From a virus (taxonomy: Duplodnaviria; Caudoviricetes): a DNA stretch of 51,825 nt. The notes below the pieces were generated by a model. The model had not been told where the DNA came from. It searched no databases and worked only from the letters and a program-made list of their open reading frames with translations. Shown in pieces: positions 4,401 through 44,316 of this stretch (its first letter is position 1; every line of letters begins with the position of its first letter). The position numbers were made by a program, and so were the translations under genes. The DNA lies in IMG/VR virus record IMGVR_UViG_3300043161_000008, positions 1 to 51,825 of that record. One strand, written 5' to 3'.

Positions 4401-4559
4401 CGTCCCCTGGCGAGTGGAGGCCCCACCGCCGGAGTAGTCGATATAGAAGTTACGAAGGAGCGCCGCGCCTGAGCGGTACTTCTGCACATCCACGCGCGAG
4501 CGGAGCTTAGGGGCCCACTCGCCAGAAGCAAAGGATGTTTGGATTGCGGGTTGGGCCAT
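1434..4559 (-). CDS. Tail tubular protein B (nozzle), with inserted beta-rich domains
   Basis: N-terminal 'QTSFASGEWAPKLRSRVD...Y...LRNF...GG...RQGT', 'RLIPFQ...YELEFGQNYIRFY', 'GWSHHDTNGQF' typical of podovirus nozzle proteins. Confidence 0.8.
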   Translation of the reverse strand: MAQPAIQTSFASGEWAPKLRSRVDVQKYRSGAALLRNFYIDYSGGGASTRQGTKFINQCKSLGARLIPFQPSTTISYELEFGQNYIRFYSNGSPILETATTIAGITQANPGVVHDVAHGYATGDWVFLLILGMAQLNANYYIVVKIDADHYSLTDLNGNVINTTTFGAFISGTAQRVYTITSPYAVTDLFPNPLTGNPGIKFVQDVTSMIICHPSYQPQILTIVAPANWTLSVINFGATIGTPATPTITSTSGTGAGWNYAYLVTALDINNQESPPSVPGTISNIQLISSAGMTNKIAWTAVPGAVSYNVYKASPALTTAIQSGAPYGFIGNCTDITFLDAFPGIDPDFSQTPPIPQNPFQGAGVQLLTLTGNDNYTTIPSVIIAAPPAGGYPAQGLAAMQVSAASVVSSQGVFQAGNIVYLSSSIAPVLGVVLGVGTVDGFGNPLTLFIVSGGNATGAGNALPSPGTFYRPGTPSNNITANLTWDINTLSVTMPGAGYTTTPGVSFSSGAATATATLFTTTGGNPGVPGFLQQRLMLANQTTAAQSYNLSQPGSFFNYDTSNPSQDDDAISGTIIAEELNDIRNLTPVPTGMIAFTGKGAWLINGGGGISTQVPITPSNQTAQPQGFNGANDMRPIKINMDALYVTNKGNYVRDLTYNLYAQIFTGRDISVISNHLFFNYYMLDWAWSEEPFKTLWCVRGDGQLVSLGFVKDEIEGWSHHDTNGQFKSVCSVIENVNGNIVDAVYFIVERIINGNTVQYVERMADRYFTYGYEDAWSVDCALQTTPYATGQAGSTAGTSVAVASSAVGPGVPVVFSPSIGLTAGNIGDVIRVGSGVMTITAVADGAHCTVNITQAIAAANLYTGIPFVTTQWTLWLPVTSVSGLTQLIGQSVVGVADGVVVGPFVVSATGSVALGLTASKITLGLAYLPQLQTLPLDLGEPTVQGKRKKITGITVRVADTLGISIGRTFAGAKPMKDFTLGNVPTTSTGPAMVTGLVSGDGRTIIDTAWDEAGNYCIQQNLPYPATILGAFPEVSLGDTK

Positions 4560-5689
4560 CAGAATGCGCTGAGAAGCGGCCCCCAATTAAAGCCACCGAT
4601 GGAGGAAGAGTATTCCCAGTTAGGAACGCCGGCCCCTCTAATCCGAAGCCAATCAGGTAGCACATCATTCACCGTCAGCCCTTCATTCCCATCCACCTTC
4701 CGTGCCTCGATCACAGCATTGTTCGCATGCTGGATTTCCATATTCGCCTTTTGCTTATCCCCATGGAGTTGGTAACCGACGTAGGCGGCGAGGCCGTGAC
4801 ACCAAGCGGAGATGAACAACGGGTCCATCACATTCGGATCGGTGACTTGCTTGACATAGGCGAGAGTCGCGAACTCCTGCCCGGTCCAGATCACGCGCTG
4901 ATCAGTCTGAGCAGAGAAAGTGACGATGAACGTGGCGCCTGAGCCCGAGCCAGTGGTAGAGGCTTGGGCCATTGGCGAAGGTTGAATAGCGAAGTATTGA
5001 CCTGAGAGGGGTTCGGTATTCTCAGGCTGGGATTGGGCGAAGGTATTGACTAGAGCGACGCCGGTGATGACACCCCCTGCACCGACGGTGGTCACGAGGA
5101 ATATCGCTGGACCGCCGATCGGTGGATTGTTAGTTGGGATGTTTGATGGTGAGTATAACCCTGGAGCAGCGTAGATTAGATCACCGACTGCGTATCCAAG
5201 GCCGCCCGCGGCAACACCAACGGTGTTAACAGAATAGAATTGGTCAATACCAATCTTGAATGGGGAGGGTGGGGAACCGAAGTTGGTTGGTGCACCCGCC
5301 CCGACGGCGGTGACTGCGGTGGTGATCGGGATGCCACCAGCAAAGCCAGTGTTGAGCCAAGGGACAATCCAACAAGCACGGAGGCAATCACCGGGGTAGG
5401 CATATTCGTAGCTCCAAGGCGGGGCTGGTTGGCCCTTGACCCAAGTTTGAGTTATCTGAGAAGTGTTCTCTGGGGTCCCGGGGGTGGAGGTGATGTAGTT
5501 AAGGTTGTTGAAGTTAAAAGCACAATCCCAAGGAGCCATTCGAAGGAGTTCGTCTCGAAGGGAGTAGATGACGAGGGAGGTCTGGATCGCCTCGTTCGAG
5601 GTCTGGTTAGTGAACTCGCTGGCGGACATGTTGGTGCGAGTGCCCGCCAGCTGTAGGGCTCGATTACCGATATCGACGAGGGCGACCAT
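4559..5689 (-). CDS. Tail tubular protein A (adaptor) with internal insertion
   Basis: 'VDIGNRAL..AG', 'LRDELLRMAPWDCA', 'WSYEYAYPGDCLR', 'MDPLFISA' match T7 gp11-like adaptors. Confidence 0.75.
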   Translation of the reverse strand: MVALVDIGNRALQLAGTRTNMSASEFTNQTSNEAIQTSLVIYSLRDELLRMAPWDCAFNFNNLNYITSTPGTPENTSQITQTWVKGQPAPPWSYEYAYPGDCLRACWIVPWLNTGFAGGIPITTAVTAVGAGAPTNFGSPPSPFKIGIDQFYSVNTVGVAAGGLGYAVGDLIYAAPGLYSPSNIPTNNPPIGGPAIFLVTTVGAGGVITGVALVNTFAQSQPENTEPLSGQYFAIQPSPMAQASTTGSGSGATFIVTFSAQTDQRVIWTGQEFATLAYVKQVTDPNVMDPLFISAWCHGLAAYVGYQLHGDKQKANMEIQHANNAVIEARKVDGNEGLTVNDVLPDWLRIRGAGVPNWEYSSSIGGFNWGPLLSAF

Positions 5690-5878
5690 TTACTTCTGCG
5701 TGCCGCAGTTGCCGTGGTTGGTGCCGTGGAGGCCGGGGCCTTGTTCCATCTGGCCCTTAGGGCCCTTCGGCGGGTCGTAAGGAAGCGGCTTGCATTCCAC
5801 CTGCCCGCTCCCGCTCATGCGAGAGGCTTGGGGCTTGGGAGTATCTGGCCCGAAGCCGGAGAGGATATCTCTTGCCAT
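5690..5878 (-). CDS. Hypothetical protein
   Basis: ORF abutting both neighbours in the late operon. Confidence 0.55.
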   Translation of the reverse strand: MARDILSGFGPDTPKPQASRMSGSGQVECKPLPYDPPKGPKGQMEQGPGLHGTNHGNCGTQK

Positions 5879-6346
5879 TTAATCCACCCTGTTGGTATCG
5901 TATTCATCAGCTGGGATCGCACGACGAACGATCTTAGGCTCCTCACTCCCAGCCGACTCTGCCTCATCAGGCTCGTTCTTTGTCTCATTAGCCTTCTTGG
6001 CTCGAGCCTCAGCAAGGGCTACGTCTTGCTTCGCGCGATCTTCACGATCCTTCGCTACTTGCACGCCAGGAGGGAGCGGAGGCTGTTGCGGTTTGTTGGT
6101 AAGCTCAGCCTTTTTGGCTTCGTCCTCAGCGATCTTCTTTGCCTTTACAGCTTCATCGAGTTTCTTTGCTGCGGCGGCCTTTGCTTGCTCAGCAAGGTAT
6201 TTATCATGTTCGACCTTCGCGTCGCGGTTGTGTTCGAGAAGCTCTTTCATTGCCAAGCCACCCAGGGCGCCTAGCTGGGCAGGGTGCCCTGCGGCCTCTT
6301 TGACGATATGCAGTAGTGCGGCTACACGGTTAATATCCATTGGCAT
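5879..6346 (-). CDS. Hypothetical Lys/Ala/Glu-rich protein
   Basis: Coupled ORF with upstream GGAG; helical low-complexity sequence. Confidence 0.6.
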   Translation of the reverse strand: MPMDINRVAALLHIVKEAAGHPAQLGALGGLAMKELLEHNRDAKVEHDKYLAEQAKAAAAKKLDEAVKAKKIAEDEAKKAELTNKPQQPPLPPGVQVAKDREDRAKQDVALAEARAKKANETKNEPDEAESAGSEEPKIVRRAIPADEYDTNRVD

Positions 6347-6558
6347 TAGTCATGTCTCCTTTGTGATCCGCCGTGGTGGATAGTTCGTCCTTCATCGTGA
6401 GGGGCGGAGAACCCACGACCTTTGTTGAGTGCCTTGGCTCCTCCAGGGAGGGTACCAGGGACATCAGTGGCCTTGTTGCCAAGGGCGAGACCGATTTGCG
6501 AAACCCCTTTCACGCTCATCGCGTGAGGAATGGGTTCGACTTTCTTCGCGTTGCTCAT
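6346..6558 (-). CDS. Hypothetical protein
   Basis: Overlapping start/stop with both neighbours; AAGGAG upstream. Confidence 0.55.
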   Translation of the reverse strand: MSNAKKVEPIPHAMSVKGVSQIGLALGNKATDVPGTLPGGAKALNKGRGFSAPHDEGRTIHHGGSQRRHD

Positions 6559-6953
6559 GCTTGCTCCTTCGGGGGTGAAAGTTGCCGGGTATGATCCCAG
6601 CGGTTGGTTGGGTCCTTTGCCATCTCACGACGGATTTTTTCAAACTCGCCTCCGTCGGTATGTAAGATGTTTAGGAGTTGGCGAAGGCGATCGTCGCAGC
6701 GCTCAGCCTCGCGCTTTACATACTCTGGAGCCTGATGGCCACGACTTTCGTACATGTAGGTGATATCGCTGACGTCATGCATGTAGTCCATGAACCGGCG
6801 CATGTACTCCGGGATTTCTTTCTCTGCCTCGCGTTGGAAGTGAACAGCGCCGGTGAGAAGGACACGAATGGACTTTAGCTCCTGTGCGATGCGGAGGAGA
6901 ATGCCCTTATCGGAAAGGTCGTTGAGATCAACCTCGGGCTTCTCATTGGGCAT
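6555..6953 (-). CDS. Hypothetical protein
   Basis: ORF; probable start MPNEK at 6953 overlapping the end of the upstream gene. Confidence 0.6.
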   Translation of the reverse strand: MPNEKPEVDLNDLSDKGILLRIAQELKSIRVLLTGAVHFQREAEKEIPEYMRRFMDYMHDVSDITYMYESRGHQAPEYVKREAERCDDRLRQLLNILHTDGGEFEKIRREMAKDPTNRWDHTRQLSPPKEQA

Positions 6954-8571
6954 GGACTTGAGCCTTCGCGGTAAGTTGTAGCGCGGTACAGGTCCCACTC
7001 AGCCCCCAAGCGGTGAAGTCCCCTGCGGAGATTTGGGTCGATGACAGGCCAGAGGCGTTGAAGTAGATGCGGCCGCTGGCGGCGAGGGTGATCGCACCGA
7101 TCTGTGTTGGCGAAGCGCAGGTGACTGAGGTCCCACATTCGTAGTAGGTAATCGTCGGGGCGCCTGAGCAGGTGTATTGGAGAGTATCGGTTGCGAGGTT
7201 GTCAACGGTGGAGGAAACGTTCCAGGCAGTGTAGCCGGCCTTGGCGGTGAGGACGGAGTTGATCGGGCCGGTGGAATAGGCGTCGATGGTTTCGGCCCTG
7301 GTGGCGATGCCATTGTTATTGTACATGCCGATGCTAAGGGGCGTCCAACCTGGGTTGCCAGAACCATCCTCAAAAAAGAACTTCTGTACGCCACCAGTGT
7401 TACCAGCGATGGTTTGCCACCAAGAAGCTGAGCCTGCGAGATAGTAGACAATATCACCGTTACGCGTTGCGGTGGGCATTATACTATTAAGAAATGCACC
7501 TGATCCTTGCACATCCCCAGCCAAATCTTGATAACCGTTAAGGAAAGTGCATCCCCCTGAGCCTGGAAGAACAGTAGTGCACTTAGCATTGCTTGCGGTC
7601 AATAGAAGCCCAAGCCCCTGAAAGGTACCTTGTGGGCCAGTGCTTCCAGCAACGCCAGCGCCAGTGACGGACCAGTTGGATAGGTTTACCAGCGCACCGC
7701 TAGCGCCACCAGAACTGATCCAGCCGCCACCAGCCCACGAGACTGCGCTTGGTATATTAGTGGGGCCGCCAGCAAAGTAGTTGGCTGAGCCACTCGTAAT
7801 TAAATGGTAACTAGAAAGAAAGTTTCCAACAATCGTTTCACCAGTGGCGCCTAAGTTGACAAAGCCACCATCGGCGATGCTTATATGCCCACCACGCGTC
7901 CCCCAAGTTCCCCAATACACGTTGTTGTAATCAGCAATCGCTGCTTGCCCTGCGTTTTGGATGCCAATAGAGCCATTGCCTCCAGTGAACTCAAGACAGC
8001 TAATGGAAGTTAGGCCTAAGTCCTTAATCTCAATCCCATTATCACTAGCTGGAACCGCGAGTACGACGTTAGTTGGGGTGGCACAATCACCTATGATAGC
8101 AGTTAGAATAGTGGCACTACCTCCACTATCACCAAAGATACCACACATTTCATTATTGCTATCAACGGCGGTGTAGGTGCCATCAGCAAGGTTAATAGTC
8201 AATGAACCCGAAATAGATTGAAGAAATGTTCCCAGCGCAGTGCGCATTGCACAAGCACCATGCAAGGTACAGGGAGTGCTAGAGTTGGTACAGGTGTTAT
8301 TAGTATCTGAGCCGGTTGGGCTAGCATATAGTTGAGTGCCTTGAGGAAGAAGGTAGAAGCCATTGACTAGATTGGTAGGAGAGGAAAACATCGGAACGTA
8401 GTTGGCAGTTCCGTTTGCCGTAGCAGCCCCGGAGGAGGAAAAGAACCCTGGGACGTTTGGTGAACCAGTTAAGTTCCCGCAGAGGGTATTGGCCGGGGCG
8501 ACGCCGGTGCACTGAGCAAAGGCCGTTGATGGAGCCAACAATAGTGTAAGCGCGAGGAGCCATTTCTTCAT
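6943..8571 (-). CDS. Signal-peptide-bearing tailspike/fibre-like protein (542 aa, 14 Cys)
   Basis: MKKWLLALTLLLAPSTAFA|Q Sec signal; 'LYASPTGSD...TINLADGTY' beta-helix entry motif; Gly/Ser/Thr-rich. Confidence 0.65.
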   Translation of the reverse strand: MKKWLLALTLLLAPSTAFAQCTGVAPANTLCGNLTGSPNVPGFFSSSGAATANGTANYVPMFSSPTNLVNGFYLLPQGTQLYASPTGSDTNNTCTNSSTPCTLHGACAMRTALGTFLQSISGSLTINLADGTYTAVDSNNEMCGIFGDSGGSATILTAIIGDCATPTNVVLAVPASDNGIEIKDLGLTSISCLEFTGGNGSIGIQNAGQAAIADYNNVYWGTWGTRGGHISIADGGFVNLGATGETIVGNFLSSYHLITSGSANYFAGGPTNIPSAVSWAGGGWISSGGASGALVNLSNWSVTGAGVAGSTGPQGTFQGLGLLLTASNAKCTTVLPGSGGCTFLNGYQDLAGDVQGSGAFLNSIMPTATRNGDIVYYLAGSASWWQTIAGNTGGVQKFFFEDGSGNPGWTPLSIGMYNNNGIATRAETIDAYSTGPINSVLTAKAGYTAWNVSSTVDNLATDTLQYTCSGAPTITYYECGTSVTCASPTQIGAITLAASGRIYFNASGLSSTQISAGDFTAWGLSGTCTALQLTAKAQVHAQ

Positions 8572-8993
8572 TGTGCATTACTCCATCCCGCTGCGACGTT
8601 GCTTGGTTGGAGGATGAAGCCTCCATAGTTGGAGGTGATCTTGACAAAGGCTAAACCCATAATCGTCTCAGCGTTTGACTTAGGTTGGATGGTGATGTTA
8701 TGTGCTGCGGCGTTACCACCAATGTCAACAATGGTGACGTTAGCTTTGACGAAGGAGCCGGGAATGGTAACGCCATTAGCCACGTCAAGAGCAGATGGCA
8801 TAATAACCGTCACCGCCCCAGCAACGTTGACTTGGACGAGGTTGGTACTGAGGTCGAGGGTGTAGGTTCCAGCAGCGGTGATTAATAGCACATTCCGCTC
8901 AGGAGTTGAAACCCACCCAATTGAGGGGCCAAGATAGGTCCTAACCCATCGACGACCCGTACCGCCCTGATCGAGGTCCGTCTGCGAAGGCAT
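8568..8993 (-). CDS. Virion-associated fibre/adaptor-like protein, no signal peptide
   Basis: 'VTVIMP...IVDIGGNAAAHNITIQP...ETIMG...I.SNYG...W' module seen in phage fibre/baseplate proteins. Confidence 0.55.
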   Translation of the reverse strand: MPSQTDLDQGGTGRRWVRTYLGPSIGWVSTPERNVLLITAAGTYTLDLSTNLVQVNVAGAVTVIMPSALDVANGVTIPGSFVKANVTIVDIGGNAAAHNITIQPKSNAETIMGLAFVKITSNYGGFILQPSNVAAGWSNAQ

Positions 8994-9559
8994 TACGCGG
9001 CCCGCCGCTCGCCCTTGGTCGATTGCTTCGCCAAGAGGGTGATGATTTCGCTATTCTGTTTCATCATCGCGGTCATTGTGCCGAGGAGTTCGCCGATGCC
9101 TTCGATCTGCGGGGCCTTATGGACCTCGTCCTTGAGGGTATTCATCTGCCCCATCAGGGTGTCGATGACTTGATTAGAGAAGGCCGCTCGCTGAGAGTCG
9201 TCGTCGGTTCCAGGGGTGGGGTTCCAGATACCCTTCGAGCATTCAGCGGTGATGGCCTTGGCCTCGTCATCGAGCGGGAGCATACCAGGGGTGGGTTTGC
9301 CTTCAAAGACTACGTCGCGTTGGTTGACGCCAGGGGCGTCGGTGACGACGATGATGTAATCTTCGATATCCCGAGAGGGGAAGGTCGGGTCCGGCTGGCC
9401 GTGCTTGGTGAGGTCGTCAATCGACTTTGGGTCGAGTTGGAGAGGGACGGAGAAGACTTCCCGCTTCGGTCGCCCGGTTCGACGGTCGATGGAGTTGTAT
9501 TCCCAAGCGGTGCCGGGGACTTTGAGGTAGTGGGCTTCGGTGAGTTTCCATCTAGCCAT
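8993..9559 (-). CDS. Phage hypothetical protein
   Basis: 188-aa ORF with GGAGAG upstream; ends in RRAA. Confidence 0.65.
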   Translation of the reverse strand: MARWKLTEAHYLKVPGTAWEYNSIDRRTGRPKREVFSVPLQLDPKSIDDLTKHGQPDPTFPSRDIEDYIIVVTDAPGVNQRDVVFEGKPTPGMLPLDDEAKAITAECSKGIWNPTPGTDDDSQRAAFSNQVIDTLMGQMNTLKDEVHKAPQIEGIGELLGTMTAMMKQNSEIITLLAKQSTKGERRAA

Positions 9560-9570
9560 AGTTTGCTCTC

Positions 9571-10005
9571 CTATTGAACTATCCAGTTTGAACCGTTACA
9601 AGTAACACCAATTGTTATCGCACCATTTCCAATTACTGTTGCGATCGCAACAGGACTTAGCGCGTCTGAAACGATGTACATTTGCCCCTTAGCGGCCGCG
9701 TTGCAGGTAGGAAGCTGGCTTCCTCCAGAACCGATTGTTGCCGCAGGCCGAGGCATACGAGCGGAAGCTAAGGCACCGGAAGCTATGTTAGCTGCATTTG
9801 TCGTATCGGTCGTCGCACTGGGAGCGAAGCTTACACTGTTAGTCTTTGTACAGGTAACTGTACCACTAGAGGTTGCTGTACAGTCGCCGCCAACTGAACC
9901 AAACACAGCAGCTATAGTAGAGCCGAAACTGTTGATACCATCGGCAACAGCGGCTCCAACCGAGAGGCCAATAAGAAGACCGATAATGCTACTGCGTATC
10001 GACAT
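9571..10005 (-). CDS. Signal-peptide-bearing short fibre-like protein (4 Cys)
   Basis: MSIRSSIIGLLIGLSVGAAVA|D; 'TNAANIASGALASARMP' fibre repeat; C-terminal 'LPTC...G.MYIVSD...CNGSNW' tip module. Confidence 0.6.
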   Translation of the reverse strand: MSIRSSIIGLLIGLSVGAAVADGINSFGSTIAAVFGSVGGDCTATSSGTVTCTKTNSVSFAPSATTDTTNAANIASGALASARMPRPAATIGSGGSQLPTCNAAAKGQMYIVSDALSPVAIATVIGNGAITIGVTCNGSNWIVQ

Positions 10006-10378
10006 AGAGCGTATCCGAGGTTGATGTACAGGTTGCTTGGATCACATCGCTTGGAATAAAAGGCCAATAGCGAGTGTAGCTTGCTCCGGCTATTAGTAGA
10101 ATTGAAGTCCCTTTAGCCGCAATCCCACTCCCAATATAAAGCCAACAGCTATCAGTCGCGTTATTATTCGCTATTGTTAGTGAGTGTCGTGCGGTCGAGT
10201 TAATCGCCGGATTTGTTACTACAGGTAGTACTGTCTGGAAAGTATTGCCAGTAGCGATAACTACAGAAGCATTTGTAGTTGGTGCATTGAATGGCGGCTG
10301 AAATGGTTGAGCGAGGATGGAACTTGGACTTAAAGCAAGTAGGAATAGTAGTACTTTCCACATTCTAATCTTTATCAT
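9989..10378 (-). CDS. Signal-peptide-bearing spike-base/decoration-like protein (2 Cys)
   Basis: MIKIRMWKVLLFLLALSPSSILA|Q; 'RHSLTIANN...WLYIG...GTSILL.AG.SY' small beta-sandwich pattern; AGGAGG RBS. Confidence 0.6.
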   Translation of the reverse strand: MIKIRMWKVLLFLLALSPSSILAQPFQPPFNAPTTNASVVIATGNTFQTVLPVVTNPAINSTARHSLTIANNNATDSCWLYIGSGIAAKGTSILLIAGASYTRYWPFIPSDVIQATCTSTSDTLYVDTQ

Positions 10379-10396
10379 TGTTTAACCTCCTAACTC

Positions 10397-10783
10397 CTAT
10401 ATCTTCGGATTAAACGCCGCCTCGACATCGCTCTGCGTCTTGACGGTACGCCCGATGTTGGCGAGGACGGATTGCTCGGTGGCGAAGGGAGCGGCTACCG
10501 CAGCCTTTGCCGTATCGAATGCTGCTTGGACTTGGGCGAGGGTCATGTCGGGGGTGAGCTTGGGCTGCGCGCCCAAGACCGCAGCATGGCGAAGATCGCG
10601 GGCGGCCTGCGTGCAGGTTTCCGGCATGGCCTTGAAGGCGTCGATCTGCGCTGGCGTGAGATTGGTGTAGGTGCGCCATTGCAGGTCATAAGTGATCGGG
10701 ACGGCCGGGCCAGTGTAGAGCTTCTGAGGCGGCGGGGTTCTTGTTGGCCGCGTCAGCGCCGTTGTGGATTTTAGGTCGATCAT
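10397..10783 (-). CDS. Hypothetical protein (possible fibre chaperone)
   Basis: ORF directly downstream of the fibre gene; probable start MIDLK. Confidence 0.5.
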   Translation of the reverse strand: MIDLKSTTALTRPTRTPPPQKLYTGPAVPITYDLQWRTYTNLTPAQIDAFKAMPETCTQAARDLRHAAVLGAQPKLTPDMTLAQVQAAFDTAKAAVAAPFATEQSVLANIGRTVKTQSDVEAAFNPKI

Positions 10784-10790
10784 TTCTTCC

Positions 10791-11948
10791 TCACCCAATT
10801 CGCCAGTTTGTAGCGTCAGAATAGACGGGCACGGCATTCCCACCAGTGCCCGCAACTATATTTCCGAGACCGGCAGCCAGCGTAGCGTTGCTATCGGTGA
10901 CAAACATTCGCGCGCCAGGGTAACTGGCCGCAGCGAAATTAGAGTTCAACGACGCTACTGTGAGCGGTACTGGACTGCCGTTCCACGATGAAACCGGGTC
11001 GCATGTCCCCGGAGCATCGCCAGGGAGCCCTGCGCCTATACCTGCGGCACCCCCTGTGAGAGCAAATTCCTGTCCAGTAGCAGCGCCGGTAACACTGTTC
11101 GGGAATATGATCGGGAATGACAGATTTCCACTTTGCAGAAATGCCTGCGAATATGCCGGCGTGCCGACCAATGTGTAACTACCGACAACCAACATTTGAG
11201 ACTGAGCAATACAGCTTAGGGCATTTAAAGCATTGCCAGAGAGTGTGACGCTTGCCTCAGCACCGGATAGGCCGTCCTGGAAGTAACCAAAAACGTCTGT
11301 TTGAATAAGACTGATGCCAGGGTTGCCAATCACCGCCATATCTACCGGCGTGCCGATGTTCGTCGGGTCTGCCCAAATAACGGTATTGTACTCAGAGATA
11401 AAAATCGCGGCGTTGTTGCTCGGCACATTGGTGCCATCGAGCGTTAAATTGCCCATGTACCAAGTCGTGCCGGAAGTAGGCTGATGCCACGCAGCGCACT
11501 CTCCGGTATTATAATTCCCGTCGTTCGGGCCGGTCGTGAGAGAAAACGTTGCCGTGCCCGAACCTTTAAAGAAGATATTGCCGCCGCCGACAGTTGGCAG
11601 CGCACCGAAACCCTGGCACGGTCCGCCATCGCCGTTGATTATGATAGTGTAACCGGCAATATCGTATTTTTCCGCGATTAGGTTTACAATTGCTTGGCTT
11701 GTCGCCTTCGGCCCATTCACTCCCCCCGTATAAGTCGCCGACAATCCATTGTAGCTGTCGCTGCCGGCAGAGGCGTTGACGTAGAGGGAGAGGTTGCCGG
11801 TGAGGACGGTGCGGATAGGAGCATCGCCGAGGATGCCATTGTTATCAGTCAGGGCGAAGCCAGACGTGCCATTGTTGACGATAGTTGTGCCAACGGTGAG
11901 GTTACTACTACCTCCGCCGCCACTTCCCTCTATAGAGATGTTACTCAT
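10791..11948 (-). CDS. Cytoplasmic tail fibre/spike-like protein
   Basis: 'RTVLTGNLSLYVNASAGSDS..G...P..T.Q' motif and C-terminal 'TVASL...GARMFVTD...VPVYSDATNWRIG' tip module; no signal peptide. Confidence 0.65.
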   Translation of the reverse strand: MSNISIEGSGGGGSSNLTVGTTIVNNGTSGFALTDNNGILGDAPIRTVLTGNLSLYVNASAGSDSYNGLSATYTGGVNGPKATSQAIVNLIAEKYDIAGYTIIINGDGGPCQGFGALPTVGGGNIFFKGSGTATFSLTTGPNDGNYNTGECAAWHQPTSGTTWYMGNLTLDGTNVPSNNAAIFISEYNTVIWADPTNIGTPVDMAVIGNPGISLIQTDVFGYFQDGLSGAEASVTLSGNALNALSCIAQSQMLVVGSYTLVGTPAYSQAFLQSGNLSFPIIFPNSVTGAATGQEFALTGGAAGIGAGLPGDAPGTCDPVSSWNGSPVPLTVASLNSNFAAASYPGARMFVTDSNATLAAGLGNIVAGTGGNAVPVYSDATNWRIG

Positions 11949-12271
11949 CCTTGCACGTACCAAATGGTACCACCAACTACAACAGCGTTGGAGGAGTTAA
12001 GGATGAAGGGGTCGCCAAGGTTACAAGTCAGGGGAAGTTGGATGAAATCTTGGACCTGAGCGGCGTTGGAACCGAAGTCTAGGGGGCCTGAGATCGGAGA
12101 AGCTCCAGACTTGTAGGTAAGGTTAGTCGCAGCAGCAAGGACAAGGAAGAATTGAAGGACCTTAATCCGTTTCCCCAACACACCAGCAATCACGATATTA
12201 TCCCCTGAGGCCGAGAAGTTAATCGGGGCCTGGACAACTGACGCGCCAACGGTTGCGTCGAAGGTGGTCAC
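11945..12271 (-). CDS. Small beta-rich virion-associated protein
   Basis: 108 aa, 'IVIAGVLGKRIKVLQFFL'; coupled to neighbours. Confidence 0.55.
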   Translation of the reverse strand: MTTFDATVGASVVQAPINFSASGDNIVIAGVLGKRIKVLQFFLVLAAATNLTYKSGASPISGPLDFGSNAAQVQDFIQLPLTCNLGDPFILNSSNAVVVGGTIWYVQG

Positions 12272-12639
12272 GCGAAGTGCTTCTCGCGAATAGAGGTGAG
12301 GGAAGCAAGGATGGCATCGTGTTGATCGCGGGCGGAAGAGACTTGGATGAGGAGGTCGTCGAGTTGAGCCTTCGCGGTGCGGGCCTTTTCAGTCACGTCA
12401 CGGAGTTCGATCTGCTTTTCGTAGATCGCGATATCATGTTCCTTCTGAGCCTTTACCTGCGCTTCGCTAAGGCCAGCGTTGACGGAAACGAGTTCGGCCT
12501 TTTTGACTTCAAGCTCTTCACGTGTTGTGTCAAGATCAGCTGAGGCAGCGCTGTATTGTTCCTTGACATGGTCAAGACTAACATTATGCTCTCGAAGCTC
12601 GGTCAAGACAGAGATAATCTTGTCGATCGTTTCGTTCAC
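12268..12639 (-). CDS. Coiled-coil protein
   Basis: Heptad-like E/K/L/A pattern over about 100 aa. Confidence 0.55.
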   Translation of the reverse strand: MNETIDKIISVLTELREHNVSLDHVKEQYSAASADLDTTREELEVKKAELVSVNAGLSEAQVKAQKEHDIAIYEKQIELRDVTEKARTAKAQLDDLLIQVSSARDQHDAILASLTSIREKHFA

Positions 12640-12670
12640 AGCTTAATCCTTTCCATGATTGATATCCCAA

Positions 12671-13738
12671 CTAAACGGCCACAGCTGAACCGCTGTATCT
12701 CGAGTGATCCATCCTTGATACAGGGCGATGTCGGTGTAGGTCGCTAAGGAACCCAGCCCAACTCCAATCACGAGAGAGGTGACCCGCAACCAGAAGGCCA
12801 GTGAATGCCAAGGGCGGACAATGGAGTGGGAAGGAGAAGAGGGAGCAGATGAGGAAGCCGACGTAGCAGGGCCAAGCGGAGGATCGGATTGAGGTCGCTG
12901 GGAGGAGTAGGATGGCAATAGCGGGTATAGCACCGACCCCGTATTGGTAAGTGAGGTCGAGGAATTCATTATGTGCGTAGGCTGGGGCATAGTAGTTGCC
13001 TTTGAAATGGATCAAGACGGCCTCGATAGAGCCAGCGCCGTGGCCCCAGAAGTTAAGGAAGTGGTAAAGGACTCGCCAGACAAGCCAGCGGAAGTCGTCA
13101 GCGGTGTCGTGCTGTGCAAGGGCGACCCAGGTCATGGGGCAAGCGGCCCAGAGGGAGCCGCGTTGGGGGCGGCAATATTGGAGGGTTAGTCCGACGGCCA
13201 GCGCCAGAATAGCAGCGCGAGATTGGGATAGAACCAAACCAGGAGCAAGAAGGGTGACCAGCCACCAAAAGCGATATGAAAGGCAGAGGAGTATAGTGAG
13301 TGCACAGCCCTCTCCGAGGATTTCGGGGTTGAACGTCAGGCCTGAAGGGCGGCAGGGGACGTATTCGATTATCCAATCAAGGCCCAGCGCCTGCGCTATT
13401 GATACAACGCTGGAAACCCCAAACCCTATTGCTAAACCGATTGTTACCTTACGCAAGTCGGCTAGCTGGGTACCGGCATAGAAGACCCCCGCGAGGATGG
13501 CGTATTGCCAAATGGTTGAGAGGCCAGTCCAGGGGTTGTCAACCCAGTCCAAGGACCAACAAGCGTAAAGGAAGAAGGTCATTCCACAAAGAATAAAAAC
13601 GGGAGAGGACTGCTTCGCCCCCTCCCGCCAAGTTATCACAGGCAAAACGCAGGAGAGGACTGACCATCCAGTCGCGATCGCTGCCCCGGTGATACCGGGG
13701 ATGTAGGCGATGGGGATAAGGAAGGCCAGGAGGAGCAT
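12671..13738 (-). CDS. O-antigen ligase / O-oligosaccharyltransferase-like (Wzy_C) polytopic membrane protein
   Basis: Many hydrophobic segments plus ordered motifs RPSGLTFNPE, LSQSRAA, R-x-x-x-W...GHGAGS, AHNEFLD...YGV and SLFSFPLH. Confidence 0.75.
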   Translation of the reverse strand: MLLLAFLIPIAYIPGITGAAIATGWSVLSCVLPVITWREGAKQSSPVFILCGMTFFLYACWSLDWVDNPWTGLSTIWQYAILAGVFYAGTQLADLRKVTIGLAIGFGVSSVVSIAQALGLDWIIEYVPCRPSGLTFNPEILGEGCALTILLCLSYRFWWLVTLLAPGLVLSQSRAAILALAVGLTLQYCRPQRGSLWAACPMTWVALAQHDTADDFRWLVWRVLYHFLNFWGHGAGSIEAVLIHFKGNYYAPAYAHNEFLDLTYQYGVGAIPAIAILLLPATSIRSSAWPCYVGFLICSLFSFPLHCPPLAFTGLLVAGHLSRDWSWAGFLSDLHRHRPVSRMDHSRYSGSAVAV

Positions 13739-14562
13739 TAACGCACTCGACGACAGGTGGCTGAGCCATAGGCCCAGAGTTGGGAAGTGGCAAAGGTCGC
13801 GCCGTCAACGAGGAAGATAGTGGTGAGGGAGGCGAGGGAGAACCTCGCCGGGCCGAGCTTGAGATCGTTGCCCCCGGAACCAGCCGAGACGGGAACGACT
13901 GACGTGGTTCCGTCGGTGCCTTCGGTGCCTAAAACACCGTCGGTGGTTACAAGCGAGGCCGAGAACTTCGTGGCAGTTGTAGTGTTTGAGAGTTGCTGTA
14001 CAGCTGTAGCACGACAATCCCAATCACCTGCGGTTAGAGGAACTGAGCCGAGGGTGATCGAGGAGTTTGTCGTGATCTGCTTAGCATTAGCGAGAGTGAC
14101 GTTGGTGGTTTGGACCTCGCCAATATTCCCAGTTGCGGCATTGTCATTGGTGGTGGTACCAGGGACCTGACCCGAGGTTACCTCCGACTTAAGGAACCAG
14201 TTGGTCCCTGACATCGGATACATCGTGACCTGAGCGCCAGCGTAGTTGATCACTACCGACGAGGAAGAGCCGTTGATGGTGTCGCCGGACTGGGGAGTGA
14301 TAGTCAGAGTGTTGGTAGACGAGACGGCGTTGCCAACGTCATAGAAGATCACTGCCGTGGTAGTGTTAGTCCCTGCCGCATAGGGAAGGGTTAAAGTTCG
14401 TGGGGCGGTGAAGGTCGCCCCTGAGGAAGTGACAATGCGCTGGTCCGAGTTAAGGACTTGATAGTTCGCATTGGGCATCGGGGTCTGAGGAGAGGTAGTA
14501 GCGAGGGCAATGCCAGACCCAACGAAAGCAGCAAAGCCACAGATTAGAAGGAGCTTTTTCAT
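13738..14562 (-). CDS. Signal-peptide-bearing Thr/Ser-rich fibre-like protein
   Basis: MKKLLLICGFAAFVGSGIALA|T (GGAGG RBS before 14562); 'TLTLP...D.GN...TLTITP.SGDTING...TNW' and 'GTTTNDNAATGNIGE' fibre modules. Confidence 0.65.
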   Translation of the reverse strand: MKKLLLICGFAAFVGSGIALATTSPQTPMPNANYQVLNSDQRIVTSSGATFTAPRTLTLPYAAGTNTTTAVIFYDVGNAVSSTNTLTITPQSGDTINGSSSSVVINYAGAQVTMYPMSGTNWFLKSEVTSGQVPGTTTNDNAATGNIGEVQTTNVTLANAKQITTNSSITLGSVPLTAGDWDCRATAVQQLSNTTTATKFSASLVTTDGVLGTEGTDGTTSVVPVSAGSGGNDLKLGPARFSLASLTTIFLVDGATFATSQLWAYGSATCRRVR

Positions 14563-15212
14563 TGCGCCGCCTCCGTCCAACGGAAGGTTACGTTAGCCAG
14601 TCCAGAAGAAGGAGAGGTGCCGTTTAGGTTGACGCAGATTTGCTCTGTCGTCTTGCGCAAGGTAGGGGCTTCCATATACCGCTGAGGCCCATACTCGAAT
14701 ACGGTATAGGGTTGACCGGAGCCGTTGGTTCCATCTGTCTTACCAAGCACCAAGTTAGCCGCGTCGATCAGACCCGGCGTTGCATCGTTGATGGTTGGGT
14801 TGGCGGTGTAGGCGGTGGTGGTTGCCTTTGGCGCAGCGTCGTTGGAGTCGACCGCATATGGAACGGGTAGCGCTGTTCCAGTGGCAGGCGTTCCAAGGGT
14901 GTTCAAGGAGGCATGCTTTATGATAACCACAGGCACAACAATCTGCGTACCGGCAGTGCCACTCACACGTATCTCTTGAAGGCGGATGGCGAGGTTCGCA
15001 GCACCGGTGATGCAAGCGATATCGGTAGCGGCCGAGGCGGGGACGATGCCGATGCCAGTTGCGGCGTAGGAGTTAACAGCGGGCTCTTGATCACAGGCGA
15101 CGCCGACTTGAGGGACGGAATTGACACCACCTACGCCAATGCAGGGGACCTGGGCCCACGCTGGGGCAGAGAGCCCCAGGAGGAACCCAGCGATGAGGAG
15201 AGCTTTATGCAT
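14559..15212 (-). CDS. Signal-peptide-bearing virion-like beta protein (4 Cys)
   Basis: MHKALLIAGFLLGLSAPAWA|Q; directly follows the capsid cement gene; GAGGGGAG RBS. Confidence 0.65.
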   Translation of the reverse strand: MHKALLIAGFLLGLSAPAWAQVPCIGVGGVNSVPQVGVACDQEPAVNSYAATGIGIVPASAATDIACITGAANLAIRLQEIRVSGTAGTQIVVPVVIIKHASLNTLGTPATGTALPVPYAVDSNDAAPKATTTAYTANPTINDATPGLIDAANLVLGKTDGTNGSGQPYTVFEYGPQRYMEAPTLRKTTEQICVNLNGTSPSSGLANVTFRWTEAAQ

Positions 15213-15224: not shown

Positions 15225-15764
15225 TCAATTCGCGACGGTGATGCCGGCTTGGTAGCCAGACATCACGGCGTTGTTGGTGCCGGTGTAAGGTTGGTCCATG
15301 CGATCGATGATAATCATGGCTTCGACGATACCTGCGGTCATAGTGGCTCCGCCGATCACATAAGATAGGCGAAGGAACCGTGGAATGGCGATGCCATCTG
15401 GCGGGCGAGGGAAGTCCATGTCCATAAGGCGAGCGCCCTGAACGAGAGTGGCAAGGGCGTAGGTGGGTGAGGTGTACCACGAGGCAGAGAACGCTGCGGG
15501 GGCGCCAGCGCCATTGTCGATCGCGGATTGGAGGCCGACGGAGAGGGTGCCAGCGCCAGCTGAGGTAAAGGCGGTGGTCACCTGCACCAAGAGCTTCAAG
15601 GTGGGATCGTCACCGATACCAATATCGCGGGCCCCTCCGCCATTGGCGGAAGAGGGGATGCCGGAAGTGATACCGAGGTCGATCACGTTGGTGGAGTTGT
15701 AAGTGCCGATCACCTGAGCGAGGTTGATCGCGGCATCGAACTGGAGGAATGAGTCAAGGATCAT
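15225..15764 (-). CDS. Capsid cement/decoration protein (BPP-1 Bbp16-like)
   Basis: 'MILD..LQF...STNVIDLG...RDIG.G...L.VQVTTAF...RFLRL.Y...TAG' pattern; immediately after the MCP. Confidence 0.75.
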   Translation of the reverse strand: MILDSFLQFDAAINLAQVIGTYNSTNVIDLGITSGIPSSANGGGARDIGIGDDPTLKLLVQVTTAFTSAGAGTLSVGLQSAIDNGAGAPAAFSASWYTSPTYALATLVQGARLMDMDFPRPPDGIAIPRFLRLSYVIGGATMTAGIVEAMIIIDRMDQPYTGTNNAVMSGYQAGITVAN

Positions 15765-15775
15765 TGTGCCGCTCC

Positions 15776-16816
15776 TTAGATAGTGGCTTCGTTGTTGAGG
15801 ATTTGGTCGCAGGTTCGGCAAGGGATACCACGGAAGGTGGTGATGGGTTTGCCATCAAACTCCTCAATCCGGAGCAAGACGTTAGTCTTATTCATGGCTT
15901 GAAGGTCCAGATATGTGCGAATGACCCGGTTGCAGTAGATCACCGTACGACCCATATTGGCCCGAACCTCGGGCGTATCGGAGGTTTGGATAGTGCCTGC
16001 ACTGACAGGCTGGGTTGGGAGTTTGTAGATCGCGCGAACGATGAGGTTGATCAGGTTCGCGGCCGAGACGCCGGTTAGCTGGGTGATGTCGATGTTTGCA
16101 ATGCGAGCGACGTAGCGCCAGTCGCGGAGGACGTAGCCGATTTCCCACTTGAAGTGGTCACGATAGGCTTGGTAGGTATTGCTGCTACTGTCCGTGACCG
16201 GCCATTCACCCATATCTCGATGCTGAAGGCCGGTGATCTTTCCCTTTGGGAAGATGCCATGGGCGGTGTCATCGCCCCAGACATGAACCCAGATGGAGGT
16301 GTTGGTTGAGGCAGCGCCGCCGCCGGAGAGGACATTGTTGGCAGTCTGCGAATTGGCGGTATTGGAGGTGGAGTAGCGCGGGGCAAGTCCGGTGAACCGT
16401 TCCGGGTTCACGAACTGGTTGCCGTAGATTAGGGTACCAGCGACCTGTTGAGACATCCCTTCGAGAAAGGCTTTCGTTTCCGAAAGGCGAAACTCTTGAG
16501 TGTTGCCATTGAGATCGGCGATGTCCTTGTCGATTACGGAGTAGGTTTCGAGGTTGCCGCACGCGTCCACAATCTGCGCGGTGGTGGACTTCGCATTCGG
16601 GACGCCTTGGTTGAGCAAGCGCCAGGTGGCCTGGGGCAAGCCGGTGCGGACAGTGGTCTTGTGCCCGGTGGGTTGGTTGCCTTCGACGACCATCATATCT
16701 TCGAGGACTTCGTTGGTCTGGGAGAGGAGTTCGATGATCCGGGCGACCTTGAACCCGTCTTCTACGCGTTTTGCCCAGTCTGCGTACGTGAGACTGAGGT
16801 TTCCAATGGTTGCCAT
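15776..16816 (-). CDS. Major capsid protein (BPP-1 Bbp17-like, HK97 fold)
   Basis: 'IIELLSQTNE.LEDM...EGN.PTGH.TTVRTGLP..TWR..NQGV', 'F.GLAPRY', 'DWRYVARIANID', 'FRGIP.R..D.I.N.EA'. Confidence 0.9.
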   Translation of the reverse strand: MATIGNLSLTYADWAKRVEDGFKVARIIELLSQTNEVLEDMMVVEGNQPTGHKTTVRTGLPQATWRLLNQGVPNAKSTTAQIVDACGNLETYSVIDKDIADLNGNTQEFRLSETKAFLEGMSQQVAGTLIYGNQFVNPERFTGLAPRYSTSNTANSQTANNVLSGGGAASTNTSIWVHVWGDDTAHGIFPKGKITGLQHRDMGEWPVTDSSSNTYQAYRDHFKWEIGYVLRDWRYVARIANIDITQLTGVSAANLINLIVRAIYKLPTQPVSAGTIQTSDTPEVRANMGRTVIYCNRVIRTYLDLQAMNKTNVLLRIEEFDGKPITTFRGIPCRTCDQILNNEATI

Positions 16817-20233: not shown

Positions 20234-20437
20234 TTATGCAAAGTTCGCTCCTGCTCCGCCGATCAAGGACCGACCGCCGGTATTCCCTGAACCCGCAACG
20301 AGGCCCGAGCCGAGGAAGGTGGGTTGAGATGATTTCTGCTGTGGCTTTTGACCAGGGCCCGAAGTGCCAAAGGCGGGTGGGGCCTGAGGGGCCTGAGGAA
20401 GGACGGGTGGTGGAGGGGAAGGGGCATTGAGGCTCAC
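20234..20437 (-). CDS. Small Pro-rich protein upstream of the portal
   Basis: Pro-rich N-terminus, 'G.SLIG' C-terminus; typical small gene between TerL and portal. Confidence 0.55.
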   Translation of the reverse strand: MSLNAPSPPPPVLPQAPQAPPAFGTSGPGQKPQQKSSQPTFLGSGLVAGSGNTGGRSLIGGAGANFA

Positions 20438-22077: not shown

Positions 22078-22689
22078 TTACGCAACCCTCCGCCGTTTGG
22101 TGGTAAGGATGGCTGCGAATGAGGGGCGGGTCGGGGGTGACACTCGTTGTGGTGTGGTCACTACCCCCGACCCTAAAGCCAACGCAGGGGCTGAGTCCAC
22201 GGTGGCTTCAACGGCGATGGCTTCGATGACTTTCACCTCGCGGGCCTTGCCGCTGCGTTCAATCGCGCGGTCAAGGAGGGCGGCGAAGTCGTGTTTGTGT
22301 TCGACCTGAGAAGTCTTAGGGTAGCCGAAGCGATCGGCGCGGTCTTGCGAAAGGCGGTTGAGGGTAAGGAGGGGGAGCTTCTCTCCGGCTTCATCAGCCT
22401 CTTCGAGTTGATCCGCGATCATCGCCTCGGCTTGGATCATATTCCCCATACCCAGGTCGAGGTATTGATCCACGTTCCGGTTCCAAATCTTCTCCACGTC
22501 GTCGCGATAAAGGGTGACGAGTTCCTTGAAAGAAGGATCGTTGAGCAGAATGGAGATGCGTTTGAAGCTGATCCCCGTCTGGCGGCGGATATGGTCATGG
22601 GTCGCGCCGATGGCAACGAGGCGGGCTACCGCGTGATGGCGCTCACGGTACTGATCGAGGGCCCGTCCCGCGGCGGTCAAGGCCCCCAT
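22078..22689 (-). CDS. Putative terminase small subunit
   Basis: N-terminal HTH-like segment, helical middle, basic tail; directly upstream of TerL. Confidence 0.55.
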   Translation of the reverse strand: MGALTAAGRALDQYRERHHAVARLVAIGATHDHIRRQTGISFKRISILLNDPSFKELVTLYRDDVEKIWNRNVDQYLDLGMGNMIQAEAMIADQLEEADEAGEKLPLLTLNRLSQDRADRFGYPKTSQVEHKHDFAALLDRAIERSGKAREVKVIEAIAVEATVDSAPALALGSGVVTTPQRVSPPTRPSFAAILTTKRRRVA

Positions 22690-23132
22690 TACGCGGCCCT
22701 CCGACGGACAGAGCCAAGAGTATTGCCATGTAATAGCGAAGTCACACGCGGTGCATCAGCAATGAGCTTTGCGACCTTTGGGAGGTCCGATACATCAATA
22801 AAAGTACGGTTCATGAGTGTATTCTTCTCAGGGAGATAGCGTTGAATAAGCTTAATCTCCTCTGCATCCAGTTGCCAAATCGGAACCCACTTGACTTTGA
22901 TTTGATCAAACTCAATTAGCGGAACTTCCTCCTTACCTTTGGATGGACGAAGCCCTTTCTTATGCCTGCGCATACCGCTGATGTGTTGACCGATCCGATG
23001 ATACACATTAAGAGACTTCCCAACGTACAGCACTGTCCCCTTGAAGAGAAGGAGATAAACCCCAGTTCCAGGCTGAGGGTGGCCAAAAGGCTCAAACCCT
23101 TCCCGTTCCGATGCCGCACAATCCTCCATCAT
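22689..23132 (-). CDS. GIY-YIG family endonuclease
   Basis: 'GVYLL...LYVGKS..V..RI..H...E...I.RY.P..N'; start placed at the ATG just downstream of the consensus promoter. Confidence 0.75.
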   Translation of the reverse strand: MMEDCAASEREGFEPFGHPQPGTGVYLLLFKGTVLYVGKSLNVYHRIGQHISGMRRHKKGLRPSKGKEEVPLIEFDQIKVKWVPIWQLDAEEIKLIQRYLPEKNTLMNRTFIDVSDLPKVAKLIADAPRVTSLLHGNTLGSVRRRAA

Positions 23133-23139
23133 GCATTCC

Positions 23140-23168
23140 ATTATACACCTTCCTGCCTCAAATGTCAA
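23140..23168 (-). promoter_or_regulatory. Perfect sigma70 promoter facing the packaging/structural arm
   Basis: Minus strand TTGACA-17 nt-TATAAT with TG immediately upstream of the -10. Confidence 0.85.
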
Positions 23169-23374
23169 GTGAAATCGCTCGGTCAACTCACGCTTCGCAA
23201 TCCGCGCGATGGATATGGGTTGTTCCTCACAACAAAAATTTGCGGGCACACACTGTGGCGCGCCCGTTCGTCGATTTTGGGGGTGGGGGTGGCGAAGATG
23301 TCACACTGTGGCCCAAAGGCAACGTGACATTGCTGCAACTGTGGCGCTGCCGCCACACATGTGCCATAAATGCA

Positions 23375-44314: not shown

Positions 44315-44316
44315 TC

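Follow-up and report, generated by a model that had tools for sequence, protein, structure and literature searches.

The window analyzed here, the whole 51,825-bp stretch that makes up the viral record IMGVR_UViG_3300043161_000008 (positions are those of the record), comes from an uncultured epsilon15/BPP-1-like podophage from soil. Between the genes for the capsid cement protein and tail tubular protein A, it carries a cassette of 16 open reading frames (ORFs; Table 1) that includes five genes for proteins with predicted secretion leaders (sp217, sp274, sp129, sp144 and sp542) and a gene for a membrane protein with a WaaL-like fold. The observation behind the original prediction, that is, signal peptides and even cysteine counts in proteins encoded within a virion operon next to an O-antigen ligase-like enzyme, is confirmed and extends to the clade of related phages. 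The interpretation that we favor, and consider about as probable as it is improbable, is that this cassette serves host recognition in a clade of probably virulent podophages whose tailspike and fiber modules have been moved behind Sec/signal peptidase I leaders, their bodies being oxidized in the periplasm and docked at lysis.

Leaders were called with a home-made heuristic score, not SignalP, and gene starts were taken as the longest ORF; the predicted sites of Sec/signal peptidase I leaders combine Lys or Arg in the n-region, 8-15 hydrophobic uncharged residues and an AxA-type site with small residues at -3 and -1. All six ORFs on which the original prediction was built are present on the minus strand, and the two neighbors that it named, the cement and tail tubular A genes, were both identified as such (Table 1). 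The five proposed Sec leaders all have this tripartite structure and rank 1st, 2nd, 4th, 5th and 6th among the 361 six-frame ORFs of the window. From the cement side to the tail side, the predicted leaders are MHKALLIAGFLLGLSAPAWA (sp217, followed by Gln), MKKLLLICGFAAFVGSGIALA (sp274, Thr), MIKIRMWKVLLFLLALSPSSILA (sp129, Gln), MSIRSSIIGLLIGLSVGAAVA (sp144, Asp) and MKKWLLALTLLLAPSTAFA (sp542, Gln). No lipobox (signal peptidase II site) was detected in these leaders: the Cys of sp542 comes after the Gln, and the leader Cys of sp274 follows Leu-Ile and is not kept in 6 relatives.

The same trait is found across the clade. A capsid-based scan of viral contigs identified, for this large soil clade, 591 relatives in one viral collection, and the best 80 of these (82-100% capsid identity) were analyzed as loci; because the loci are related, counts over them are not independent. 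With our own ORF caller and the heuristic, 145 of the 442 ORFs of at least 100 amino acids (aa) downstream of the capsid gene are leader-like, compared to 7 of the 348 upstream ORFs on the same strand. A leader ORF starts 0.3-2.5 kb after the capsid gene in 46 of the 47 loci with enough sequence, compared to 1 of 37 for an upstream control window of equal size, and 59 of the 107 distinct leaders have Gln directly after the predicted cleavage site. The leader trait is clade-wide, beyond chance clustering. Searches with tblastn over the 80 loci showed that the cement-tubular A block is hypervariable, with a small conserved core (o188, o141, o147, o70 and o62); capsid relatives at 65% identity or less, including prophages of Acetobacteraceae isolates and contigs from Gastranaerophilales metagenome-assembled genomes (MAGs), lack the block. 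In most relatives (L002-L081), 2-3 small leader proteins of ~120-150 mature residues, with four Cys each, are encoded right after the cement gene whatever the fiber type, forming a near-core exported set.

The mature parts of the five proteins contain 4, 2, 2, 4 and 14 Cys residues, as originally counted, the third Cys of sp274 falling within the leader. Across the clade, 105 of the 115 distinct leader proteins have mature parts with an even, non-zero number of Cys (zero in 4 and odd in 6), compared to 72 of the 249 other cassette proteins (zero in 71 and odd in 106). Counted by cluster, 35 of the 41 leader clusters are even, 5 odd and 1 zero, and the 98 clusters of other proteins include 32 even, 45 odd, 5 tied and 16 zero. 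The odd leader cases are mostly artefacts (truncated ORFs or internal starts), and the contrast is conservative because the set of other proteins still includes missed leader proteins. An even-Cys bias is said to be an established mark of exported, oxidized proteins, an argument attributed to Dutton and colleagues in 2008. A search for homologous pairs with and without a leader mainly showed that the 'leaderless' set still includes leader proteins whose long ORF starts had concealed the leader; sp274 with P0215, an 803-aa leaderless spike, is the one genuine pair family. In this sole leaderless homolog, Val and Ala occupy the positions of the two Cys that are invariant in the sp274 family, so that the comparison can be regarded as a natural control for the association between leader and Cys. 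The mature parts contain 17-29% Ser+Thr and 5-15% Gly, compared to 16% and 7.5%, respectively, in the capsid protein. With leaders and the even-Cys rule coinciding throughout the clade, there is strong in silico support for the proposed export and oxidative folding, both of which appear very likely; given the secretion signals and the paired Cys, the spike and fiber parts probably fold outside the cytoplasm.

As judged from its structure model and homologs, sp542 is a beta-helix, depolymerase-type tailspike-like protein. It consists of the leader, a conserved Cys-loop N-module, a right-handed beta-helix (residues ~77-360) and a C-terminal domain, and the model is confident for residues 80-350 only. 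Matches obtained with VIA for the beta-helix (Z 15-18.7, root-mean-square deviation (rmsd) ~3-4 Å, 215-250 residues) include glycoside hydrolases, pectate and alginate lyases and phage tailspikes as well as the bacterial proteins VexL and WceF. Foldseek returned no row at E 0.001 or better for the whole model, so the fold assignment rests on VIA; no match to sp542 was detected by tblastn in cultured phage records, nor was one found in species genomes. The homologs keep the leader and the mature N-module (QC.G..P.N..CGN) and differ in their middle parts, one having a Pect-lyase domain and another a tail-collar domain; in some, the similarity is confined to the last ~120 residues. The public gene call for sp542 (P0001, 434 aa) starts at an internal Met, without the leader and the N-module that homologs of 525-537 aa retain; therefore, automatic annotation hides such leaders.

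The particle-binding N-terminal domain is not found on the sp542 chain; the homologous domain is the product of a separate gene, o141. The o141 protein is 48% identical (BLASTP, E 9e-27) to residues 1-140 of P0215, its domain heads two more leaderless proteins, P0220 (1131 aa, Beta_helix, PF13229) and P0221 (779 aa, Pect-lyase, PF12708), and hhalign identifies the N-domain of sp274 as a homolog (probability 90%, E 1.6e-6); a sequence profile of the o141 family found nothing in PDB. In the window, where the o141 stop overlaps the sp542 start as ATGA, and in L002, L004, L005, L008, L019/L021, L038 and L013/L114, o141 is followed by a gene for a leader protein with the mature start QC.G, and in these 8 distinct loci the start overlaps the preceding gene by 3-21 nt. 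A distant relative of o141 is encoded in L032 ahead of a canonical T7-type leaderless fiber, and in L077 the o141 domain is fused to a spike; the fused leaderless spikes lack a hydrophobic N-terminal segment of the leader kind. Among the 18 rows that span the whole cassette, which represent few, related phages, the T7-type leaderless fiber (3 rows) and the pair of o141 and a QC.G protein (9 rows) never occur together. Taken together, o141 and sp542 look like a split spike with a cytoplasmic anchor and an exported body; it is mainly this pattern of fusion and fission that suggests one functional spike whose halves are made in different compartments.

Podophage tailspike depolymerases (P22 gp9, Acinetobacter phage Fri1 gp49, Klebsiella KP32gp38 and CBA120 TSP2) resemble sp542 in the beta-helix body (Z 15-16), in the swapping of distal parts on a conserved N-module and in the location of the gene in the structural operon. 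The differences are that, in the window, the anchor is encoded by a separate leaderless gene and the body has a Sec leader and 14 Cys; the podophage tailspikes that we know of have no leader and fold in the cytoplasm. The nearest parallel in a cultured phage is Cellulophaga phage phi18:3 (NC_021794.1), in which gp085-087 are consecutive large podophage proteins with Sec-like N-termini and Gln after the site, and carry the GenBank notes 'experimental MS/MS proteomics' and structural or tail protein. These three proteins differ from those of the window in having 0, 1 and 3 Cys, and the host is a marine member of the Bacteroidota. No sequence relationship between the window and phi18:3 was found in tblastn searches of the phage collection, in which sp542 had zero matches and sp274 matched Pam5 only. 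Literature searches found no paper describing leader-bearing tail fibers or the phi18:3 leaders.

The other exported proteins are more heterogeneous. In sp274, the leader is followed by an anchor-like domain (residues ~45-120) and a C-terminal domain with the invariant Cys pair C183 and C270 and the family C-terminus CRR.R; both domains match P0215 (BLASTP; residues 53-116, E 2e-6, and 135-274, E 2e-10), and tblastn detects the N-terminal part of a 'tail spike protein' of the cultured Pseudanabaena phage Pam5. A T4 gp9/gp10-like adaptor (PF07880) was considered for sp274 and set aside as a lead only, its score being 23.1 bits with a cut-off of 25. The most widespread leader protein of the clade is sp217, with tblastn relatives (E 1e-5 or better) in 31 of the 80 loci; its nearest Atlas clusters are viral hypothetical proteins. 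The last 47 aa of sp144, both Cys included, are common to the 541-aa leader protein of relative G005 (L039:3457-5082; BLASTP E 2e-7), and no relatives of sp129 were found among the fetched loci. The proposed resemblance of the mature parts to fiber modules is shown for sp542 (beta-helix) and sp274 (two domains in common with a leaderless spike) and in part for sp144 (the shared C-terminal 47 aa), but not for sp217 and sp129.

Among the leaderless proteins of the window, only f390 is a candidate receptor-binding protein; it has no Pfam or PHROG match, and its true start is probably an ATG 15 nt inside the ORF. A common C-terminal 'tip' of f390 and sp144 was dropped (BLASTP E 0.24; f390 with the 541-aa protein of L039, E 0.19). 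No window protein matches the T7-type fiber anchor profile (phrog_1640/13893), which is found in 6 of 31 large leaderless proteins and 0 of 32 large leader proteins of the relatives; 5 of the 32 match PHROG tail families. Pfam domains were detected in 8 of 109 large leader proteins of the relatives: Pect-lyase (2), BNR_4, ArabFuran-catal, Big_7 and StcE beta-sandwich (2). In G005, a complete relative of 44,082 bp with direct terminal repeats, the only fiber-sized proteins outside the portal, capsid, tubular and internal proteins are those of 646 aa (16 Cys) and 541 aa, both with leaders, and the large cassette proteins of L002, L019 and L038 are all leader-bearing. The G005 leader proteins of 129 and 541 aa (L039:3059-5082) are encoded outside the usual cassette, between the small-terminase-side genes and the large terminase.

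The membrane gene is translationally coupled to sp274, as had been proposed, the stop of the latter overlapping the start of the former as TAATG. The designation 'Wzy_C-type' stands at the level of the fold and of the family; for the protein itself, the match is below the threshold (E 0.01, 16.1 bits, with a Pfam cut-off of 31.7). A phmmer search of 1.84 billion representatives yielded 1091 homologs at E 0.001 or better, and Wzy_C (PF04932) is matched by 38 of the 80 homologs that were aligned (E 0.001 or better, best 9e-12). In this alignment, G101, R217, G232, H256 and G267 are invariant, and R174 is present in at least 90% of the sequences. Wzy_C enzymes require a conserved Arg and a conserved His of periplasmic loops for catalysis, to which R217 and H256 may correspond. 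The structure model (mean predicted local distance difference test score 90.3) matches WaaL of Cupriavidus metallidurans over the whole protein (VIA, 7tpj_B, Z 20.7, rmsd 4.0 Å, 295 residues; Foldseek, 7tpg_B, E 1.6e-6), the next VIA row being at 9.7 and SEDS proteins at Z 8-10. Differences from WaaL include the length (355 aa compared to 403), the location in a phage and the coupling to a gene for an exported phage protein. We assign the protein to a phage-borne subfamily of the Wzy_C superfamily with a WaaL-type fold, which does not separate ligases, polymerases and protein O-transferases. Homologs with at least 53% identity occur only on contigs of 52,258 bp or less, many of 50-52 kb; none was found by pattern scan in 185,579 species genomes, and tblastn against the 50,697 phage records gave no match. 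Pattern scanning of viral contigs retrieved 0 loci with the single protein and 5 with the alignment A3; the family profile detected no PDB chain at E 1 or better, and NCBIfam contains no relevant family.

A trio consisting of an sp217-like gene, an sp274-like gene and the enzyme gene is present in 7 phage records (the window, L002, L003, L004, L038, L117 and L120), and other leader proteins precede the enzyme gene in L019/L021 and L032. At the same time, tblastn detects the enzyme in only 7 of the 80 capsid-derived loci despite the near-universal leader proteins, indicating that fiber export does not depend on it. The dedicated protein O-oligosaccharyltransferases of the Pseudomonas pilA-tfpO and Acinetobacter comP-pglL pairs are encoded right after their substrates. 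The arrangement in the window, where the enzyme gene is directly downstream of, and coupled to, the gene for the exported Ser/Thr-rich sp274, is similar by analogy only: there is no pilin, sp274 has no known sequon or C-terminal Ser, and the upstream gene differs in L019 and L032. Glycosylation of the phage proteins by the enzyme would be possible but appears less probable than not.

Under the mechanism that we propose, the five proteins would cross the inner membrane and acquire disulfides, and the N-terminal Gln exposed on three of them could cyclize to pyroglutamate. The o141 protein would sit on the cytoplasm-built tail as a detached spike anchor domain, and the sp542 body, perhaps along with sp274 through its own anchor-like domain, would dock once the holin has opened the inner membrane, or at lysis. 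Canonical holins produce large inner-membrane lesions before the outer membrane goes, and such lesions would let the particles meet a concentrated periplasmic pool. The WaaL-fold enzyme would act at the periplasmic face on an undecaprenyl-pyrophosphate (Und-PP)-linked glycan, the acceptor being either an exported phage protein, in the style of pilin and TfpO, or the lipopolysaccharide of the cell itself; the small four-Cys leader proteins encoded after the cement gene may have a separate, envelope-directed role. In the textbook view, assembly of tailed phages is entirely cytoplasmic. Assembly in two compartments, with the particle and o141 made in the cytoplasm and Sec-secreted, oxidized and perhaps glycosylated spikes and fibers snapping on at the holin breach, seems plausible to us at somewhat less than an even chance. 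Virion attachment in general appears to be the best reading of these sequences, albeit an evenly poised one; the addition of accessory fiber subunits to virions, as originally put forward, receives indirect support from the detached o141 domain, from G005 and from the MS/MS annotation of phi18:3, support that stops short of attachment in the present phage.

Several observations weigh against docking of exported proteins onto particles. The leader calls come from our own heuristic with gene starts set to the longest ORF, and all the evidence is in silico; literature searches found no tailed phage that adds periplasmic proteins to its particles. The window has its own leaderless candidate fiber, f390, and relative G004 encodes five leaderless fiber-sized proteins and only two small leader proteins. 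In L033, L053 and L056, large leader proteins occur beside a canonical T7-type fiber and, in those loci, are not needed as the only receptor-binding protein. The PF07880 match is below the cut-off and was obtained with 1 of 7 sp274 relatives and 0 of 11 o141 relatives (E 0.05 or better). The MS/MS notes for phi18:3 could reflect co-purifying proteins, and no Cys pairing rule is apparent there. The beta-helix fold also occurs in bacterial periplasmic and secreted enzymes such as VexL and WceF. Some of these points favor an alternative that we hold to be less probable, though still of substantial weight: the exported proteins would never join the virion, and the cassette would remodel the envelope glycans of the infected cell late in infection. 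In the periplasm, depolymerases and lectin-like binders would degrade or cover newly made O-antigen, capsule or exopolysaccharide, and the WaaL-fold enzyme would redirect Und-PP-linked glycan, with the effect of blocking superinfection, keeping progeny off debris or releasing progeny from the matrix. The enzyme domains on the 109 large leader proteins of relatives (Pect-lyase in two, BNR_4 and ArabFuran-catal) fit this role, as do the leader proteins that accompany leaderless fibers in the three loci named above, the near-universal small four-Cys leader proteins found with any fiber type, and the WaaL-fold enzyme itself, which acts on envelope glycans by the definition of its fold family. Pantoea WceF and Salmonella VexL, to which sp542 has fold matches, are described as exported beta-helix enzymes acting on envelope polysaccharide, similar to what is predicted for sp542 (PMC7949094); WceF differs in having a Tat signal and a place in a chromosomal exopolysaccharide cluster, compared to the Sec-type leader of sp542 and its location in a phage particle operon after a detached spike anchor. 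Likewise, a role in outer-membrane modification has been suggested for Porphyromonas gingivalis phage genes of unknown function with Q-rule leaders (PMC10367356). The envelope alternative leaves G005, L019, L002 and L038 without a recognizable receptor-binding protein, and it does not account for a spike anchor kept as a separate, translationally coupled gene before an exported body or for the anchor-like domain that sp274 retains. A conserved N-module with swapped distal parts is the pattern of docked virion proteins, and the conserved mature N-modules with swapped distal parts found here fit that pattern.

Exported phage proteins of other kinds are represented by lambda Lom and Bor, T5 Llp and phi80 Cor, which are small, occur singly, lack virion-type domains and are either outer-membrane proteins or lipoproteins. 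The leader-bearing proteins of the window resemble such morons in being encoded within a tail-gene region and differ in that there are five per genome, some large and consisting of spike modules, with no sign of promoters and terminators of their own. A lysogenic conversion module of the epsilon15/D3 kind, expressed from a prophage, with the enzyme as an O-antigen polymerase and the small exported proteins as inhibitors of host enzymes, might be suspected from the epsilon15/phiV10-like capsid (50-52% identity) and the Wzy_C matches in the enzyme family, given that Wzy-type genes adjoin tailspike genes in epsilon15 and D3. Such a module appears improbable: no integrase, repressor or excisionase was detected among the window ORFs scanned, the phage encodes a DNA polymerase, a primase and a helicase of its own, promoter-like and terminator-like sites are not in excess, close homologs of the enzyme are confined to contigs of no more than ~52 kb and absent from the species genomes scanned, and the nearest solved fold is that of the ligase WaaL. 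No Wzy structure was among the fold matches, so that the enzyme may still be a polymerase. Very unlikely, and the least probable of all, is the view that the hydrophobic N-termini are structural elements, such as buried tail anchors, and not export signals. Virions are extracellular, so that disulfides could form after release; however, the five unrelated mature proteins have in common only the tripartite leader with AxA-type sites, over half of the distinct leaders have Gln after the predicted site, the even-Cys bias is not seen in leaderless virion proteins, and the fused leaderless spikes have no such hydrophobic segment.

If the host-recognition proteins of the clade do pass through the periplasm, particle completion would depend on the Sec, signal peptidase and disulfide machinery of the host, creating new points of dependency and resistance, and the receptor-binding proteins could be fitted for harsh soils by stabilizing disulfides and perhaps also by glycosylation. 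Automated gene calling and annotation would give such genes wrong starts or wrong labels, as in the public call of sp542, and heterologous production of such depolymerases would require periplasmic expression. If, instead, the cassette acts on the envelope, a clade-wide, late-expressed set of exported spike paralogs with a phage-borne WaaL-like enzyme, in a phage without lysogeny genes, would represent a mode of host-envelope manipulation not described before.

Table 1. Genes of the cement-tubular A cassette, its borders and the other assigned particle genes of the window
Feature	Coordinates	Strand	Evidence
Cement protein, Bbp16 family, upstream border	15225-15821	-	Pfam PF21190, E 1.6e-12; phrog_427
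sp217, predicted exported protein, 4 mature Cys, predicted Gln at +1	14559-15212	-	leader heuristic, Cys count
sp274, predicted exported protein: leader, spike-anchor-like domain, C-terminal domain	13738-14562	-	BLASTP, hhalign, family alignment
Predicted WaaL-fold membrane protein, 355 aa, polytopic	12671-13738	-	structure model, Foldseek, VIA
Leaderless 123-aa protein	12268-12639	-	ORF; weak OmpH-like Pfam match, E 0.0077, below cut-off
108-aa ORF	11945-12271	-	relatives in L046, L117, L120
f390, Gly-rich leaderless fiber-like protein	10791-11963	-	ORF; 48% relative in L117
152-aa ORF	10397-10855	-	relative in L117
sp129, predicted small exported protein, 2 mature Cys, Gln at +1	9989-10378	-	leader heuristic
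sp144, predicted small exported protein, 4 mature Cys	9571-10005	-	leader heuristic; BLASTP
o188, leaderless clade core protein	8993-9559	-	tblastn relatives in most loci reaching it
o141, leaderless Cys-free protein, proposed virion-side anchor	8568-8993	-	BLASTP to P0215
sp542, predicted exported tailspike-like protein, 14 Cys	6943-8571	-	VIA fold matches; homologs
Four small leaderless core ORFs	6555-6998, 6346-6558, 5879-6346, 5690-5878	-	adjoin tubular A in relatives too
Tail tubular A, downstream border	4559-5689	-	phrog_394, E 4.6e-25
Terminase	20434-21951	-	Pfam/PHROG scan
Portal		-	PF12236
Scaffold		-	between portal and major capsid genes
Major capsid protein		-	PF20911, E 1.1e-132
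Tail tubular B		-	phrog_376

The late operon is encoded on the minus strand in the order terminase, portal, scaffold, capsid, cement, the 16 ORFs of the cassette, tubular A, tubular B and internal virion proteins (Table 1), and the remaining genome codes for DNA polymerase A, primase, helicase, a nuclease and a GH108 endolysin (Pfam, PHROGs). The capsid protein is 50-52% identical to its counterparts in Salmonella, Enterobacter and Escherichia phages including phiV10, an epsilon15 relative. In phiV10, the Bbp16-like gene and the tail genes are only two small genes apart, so the ~9.5-kb cement-tubular A block can be considered an insertion. Among the 14 cassette proteins scanned, none had a PHROG match or a Pfam match above the threshold. 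The leaderless 123-aa protein, which reads as a coiled coil from the sequence alone, has relatives that come after the membrane gene in L117 and L120. The cassette genes are tightly packed with overlapping starts, and GGAG-type ribosome sites precede sp217, sp274 and sp129. No integrase, repressor or excisionase was found among the window ORFs scanned with Pfam and PHROGs, some small ORFs being outside the scan, so a virulent lifestyle is likely, if unproven; along with the tight packing, the lack of detectable integrase and repressor suggests late co-expression of the cassette with the particle genes. The window contains 6 promoter-like and 15 terminator-like sites, compared to 7.4 and 13.3 expected, respectively, for a promoter type that may differ from that of the host.

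With respect to the host, MAGs from five genera unrelated to one another contain binned capsid relatives (81-85% identity), and the Gln at +1 recalls the Q-rule of Bacteroidetes (PMC5837995). In two Acidobacteriota MAGs with related phage contigs (L133-L158; G009, G010), the N-termini of TonB receptors often have Gln near the predicted cleavage site; this is mostly not the case in the MAGs of Telmatospirillum and Scandinavium, and the sample is too small for a host call.

The record is rated 100% complete (CheckV), and end repeats were not found. One ORF continues past both record ends (3-425 and 50258-51823, minus strand), and therefore the record is probably a permuted circle cut within a ~660-aa gene. 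With the ends abutted, the two ORF pieces are four bases apart, so that they cannot be read as one frame. The lengths of sister contigs (51,863 and 51,877 bp) suggest that the record misses some bases.

Outside the cassette, a sixth leader protein (42546-43247, minus strand, 233 aa), with Ala after the predicted cleavage site and no Pfam or PHROG match found, is encoded directly downstream of the endolysin gene (43748-44362) and two small membrane-like ORFs; it may be a lysis or outer-membrane protein. A 1987-aa protein (44317-50280, minus strand) in the position of an internal virion protein contains LPD22 and polyvalent-protein ADP-ribosyltransferase domains (PF18834, PF18760). Upstream of the large terminase gene and in the same direction, a GIY-YIG nuclease-domain protein (22689-23249, minus strand), which may be a homing endonuclease, is separated from it by a 203-aa ORF (22078-22689). 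The family A DNA polymerase is encoded in two ORFs (38072-39124 and 39411-40907, plus strand), the first of which contains a uracil-DNA-glycosylase-superfamily domain fused to the 3'-5' exonuclease. Finally, tubular A is about twice the usual length, and its extra middle part (residues ~135-266), with a match to a 'virion structural protein' PHROG, may form an exposed domain that faces the host.

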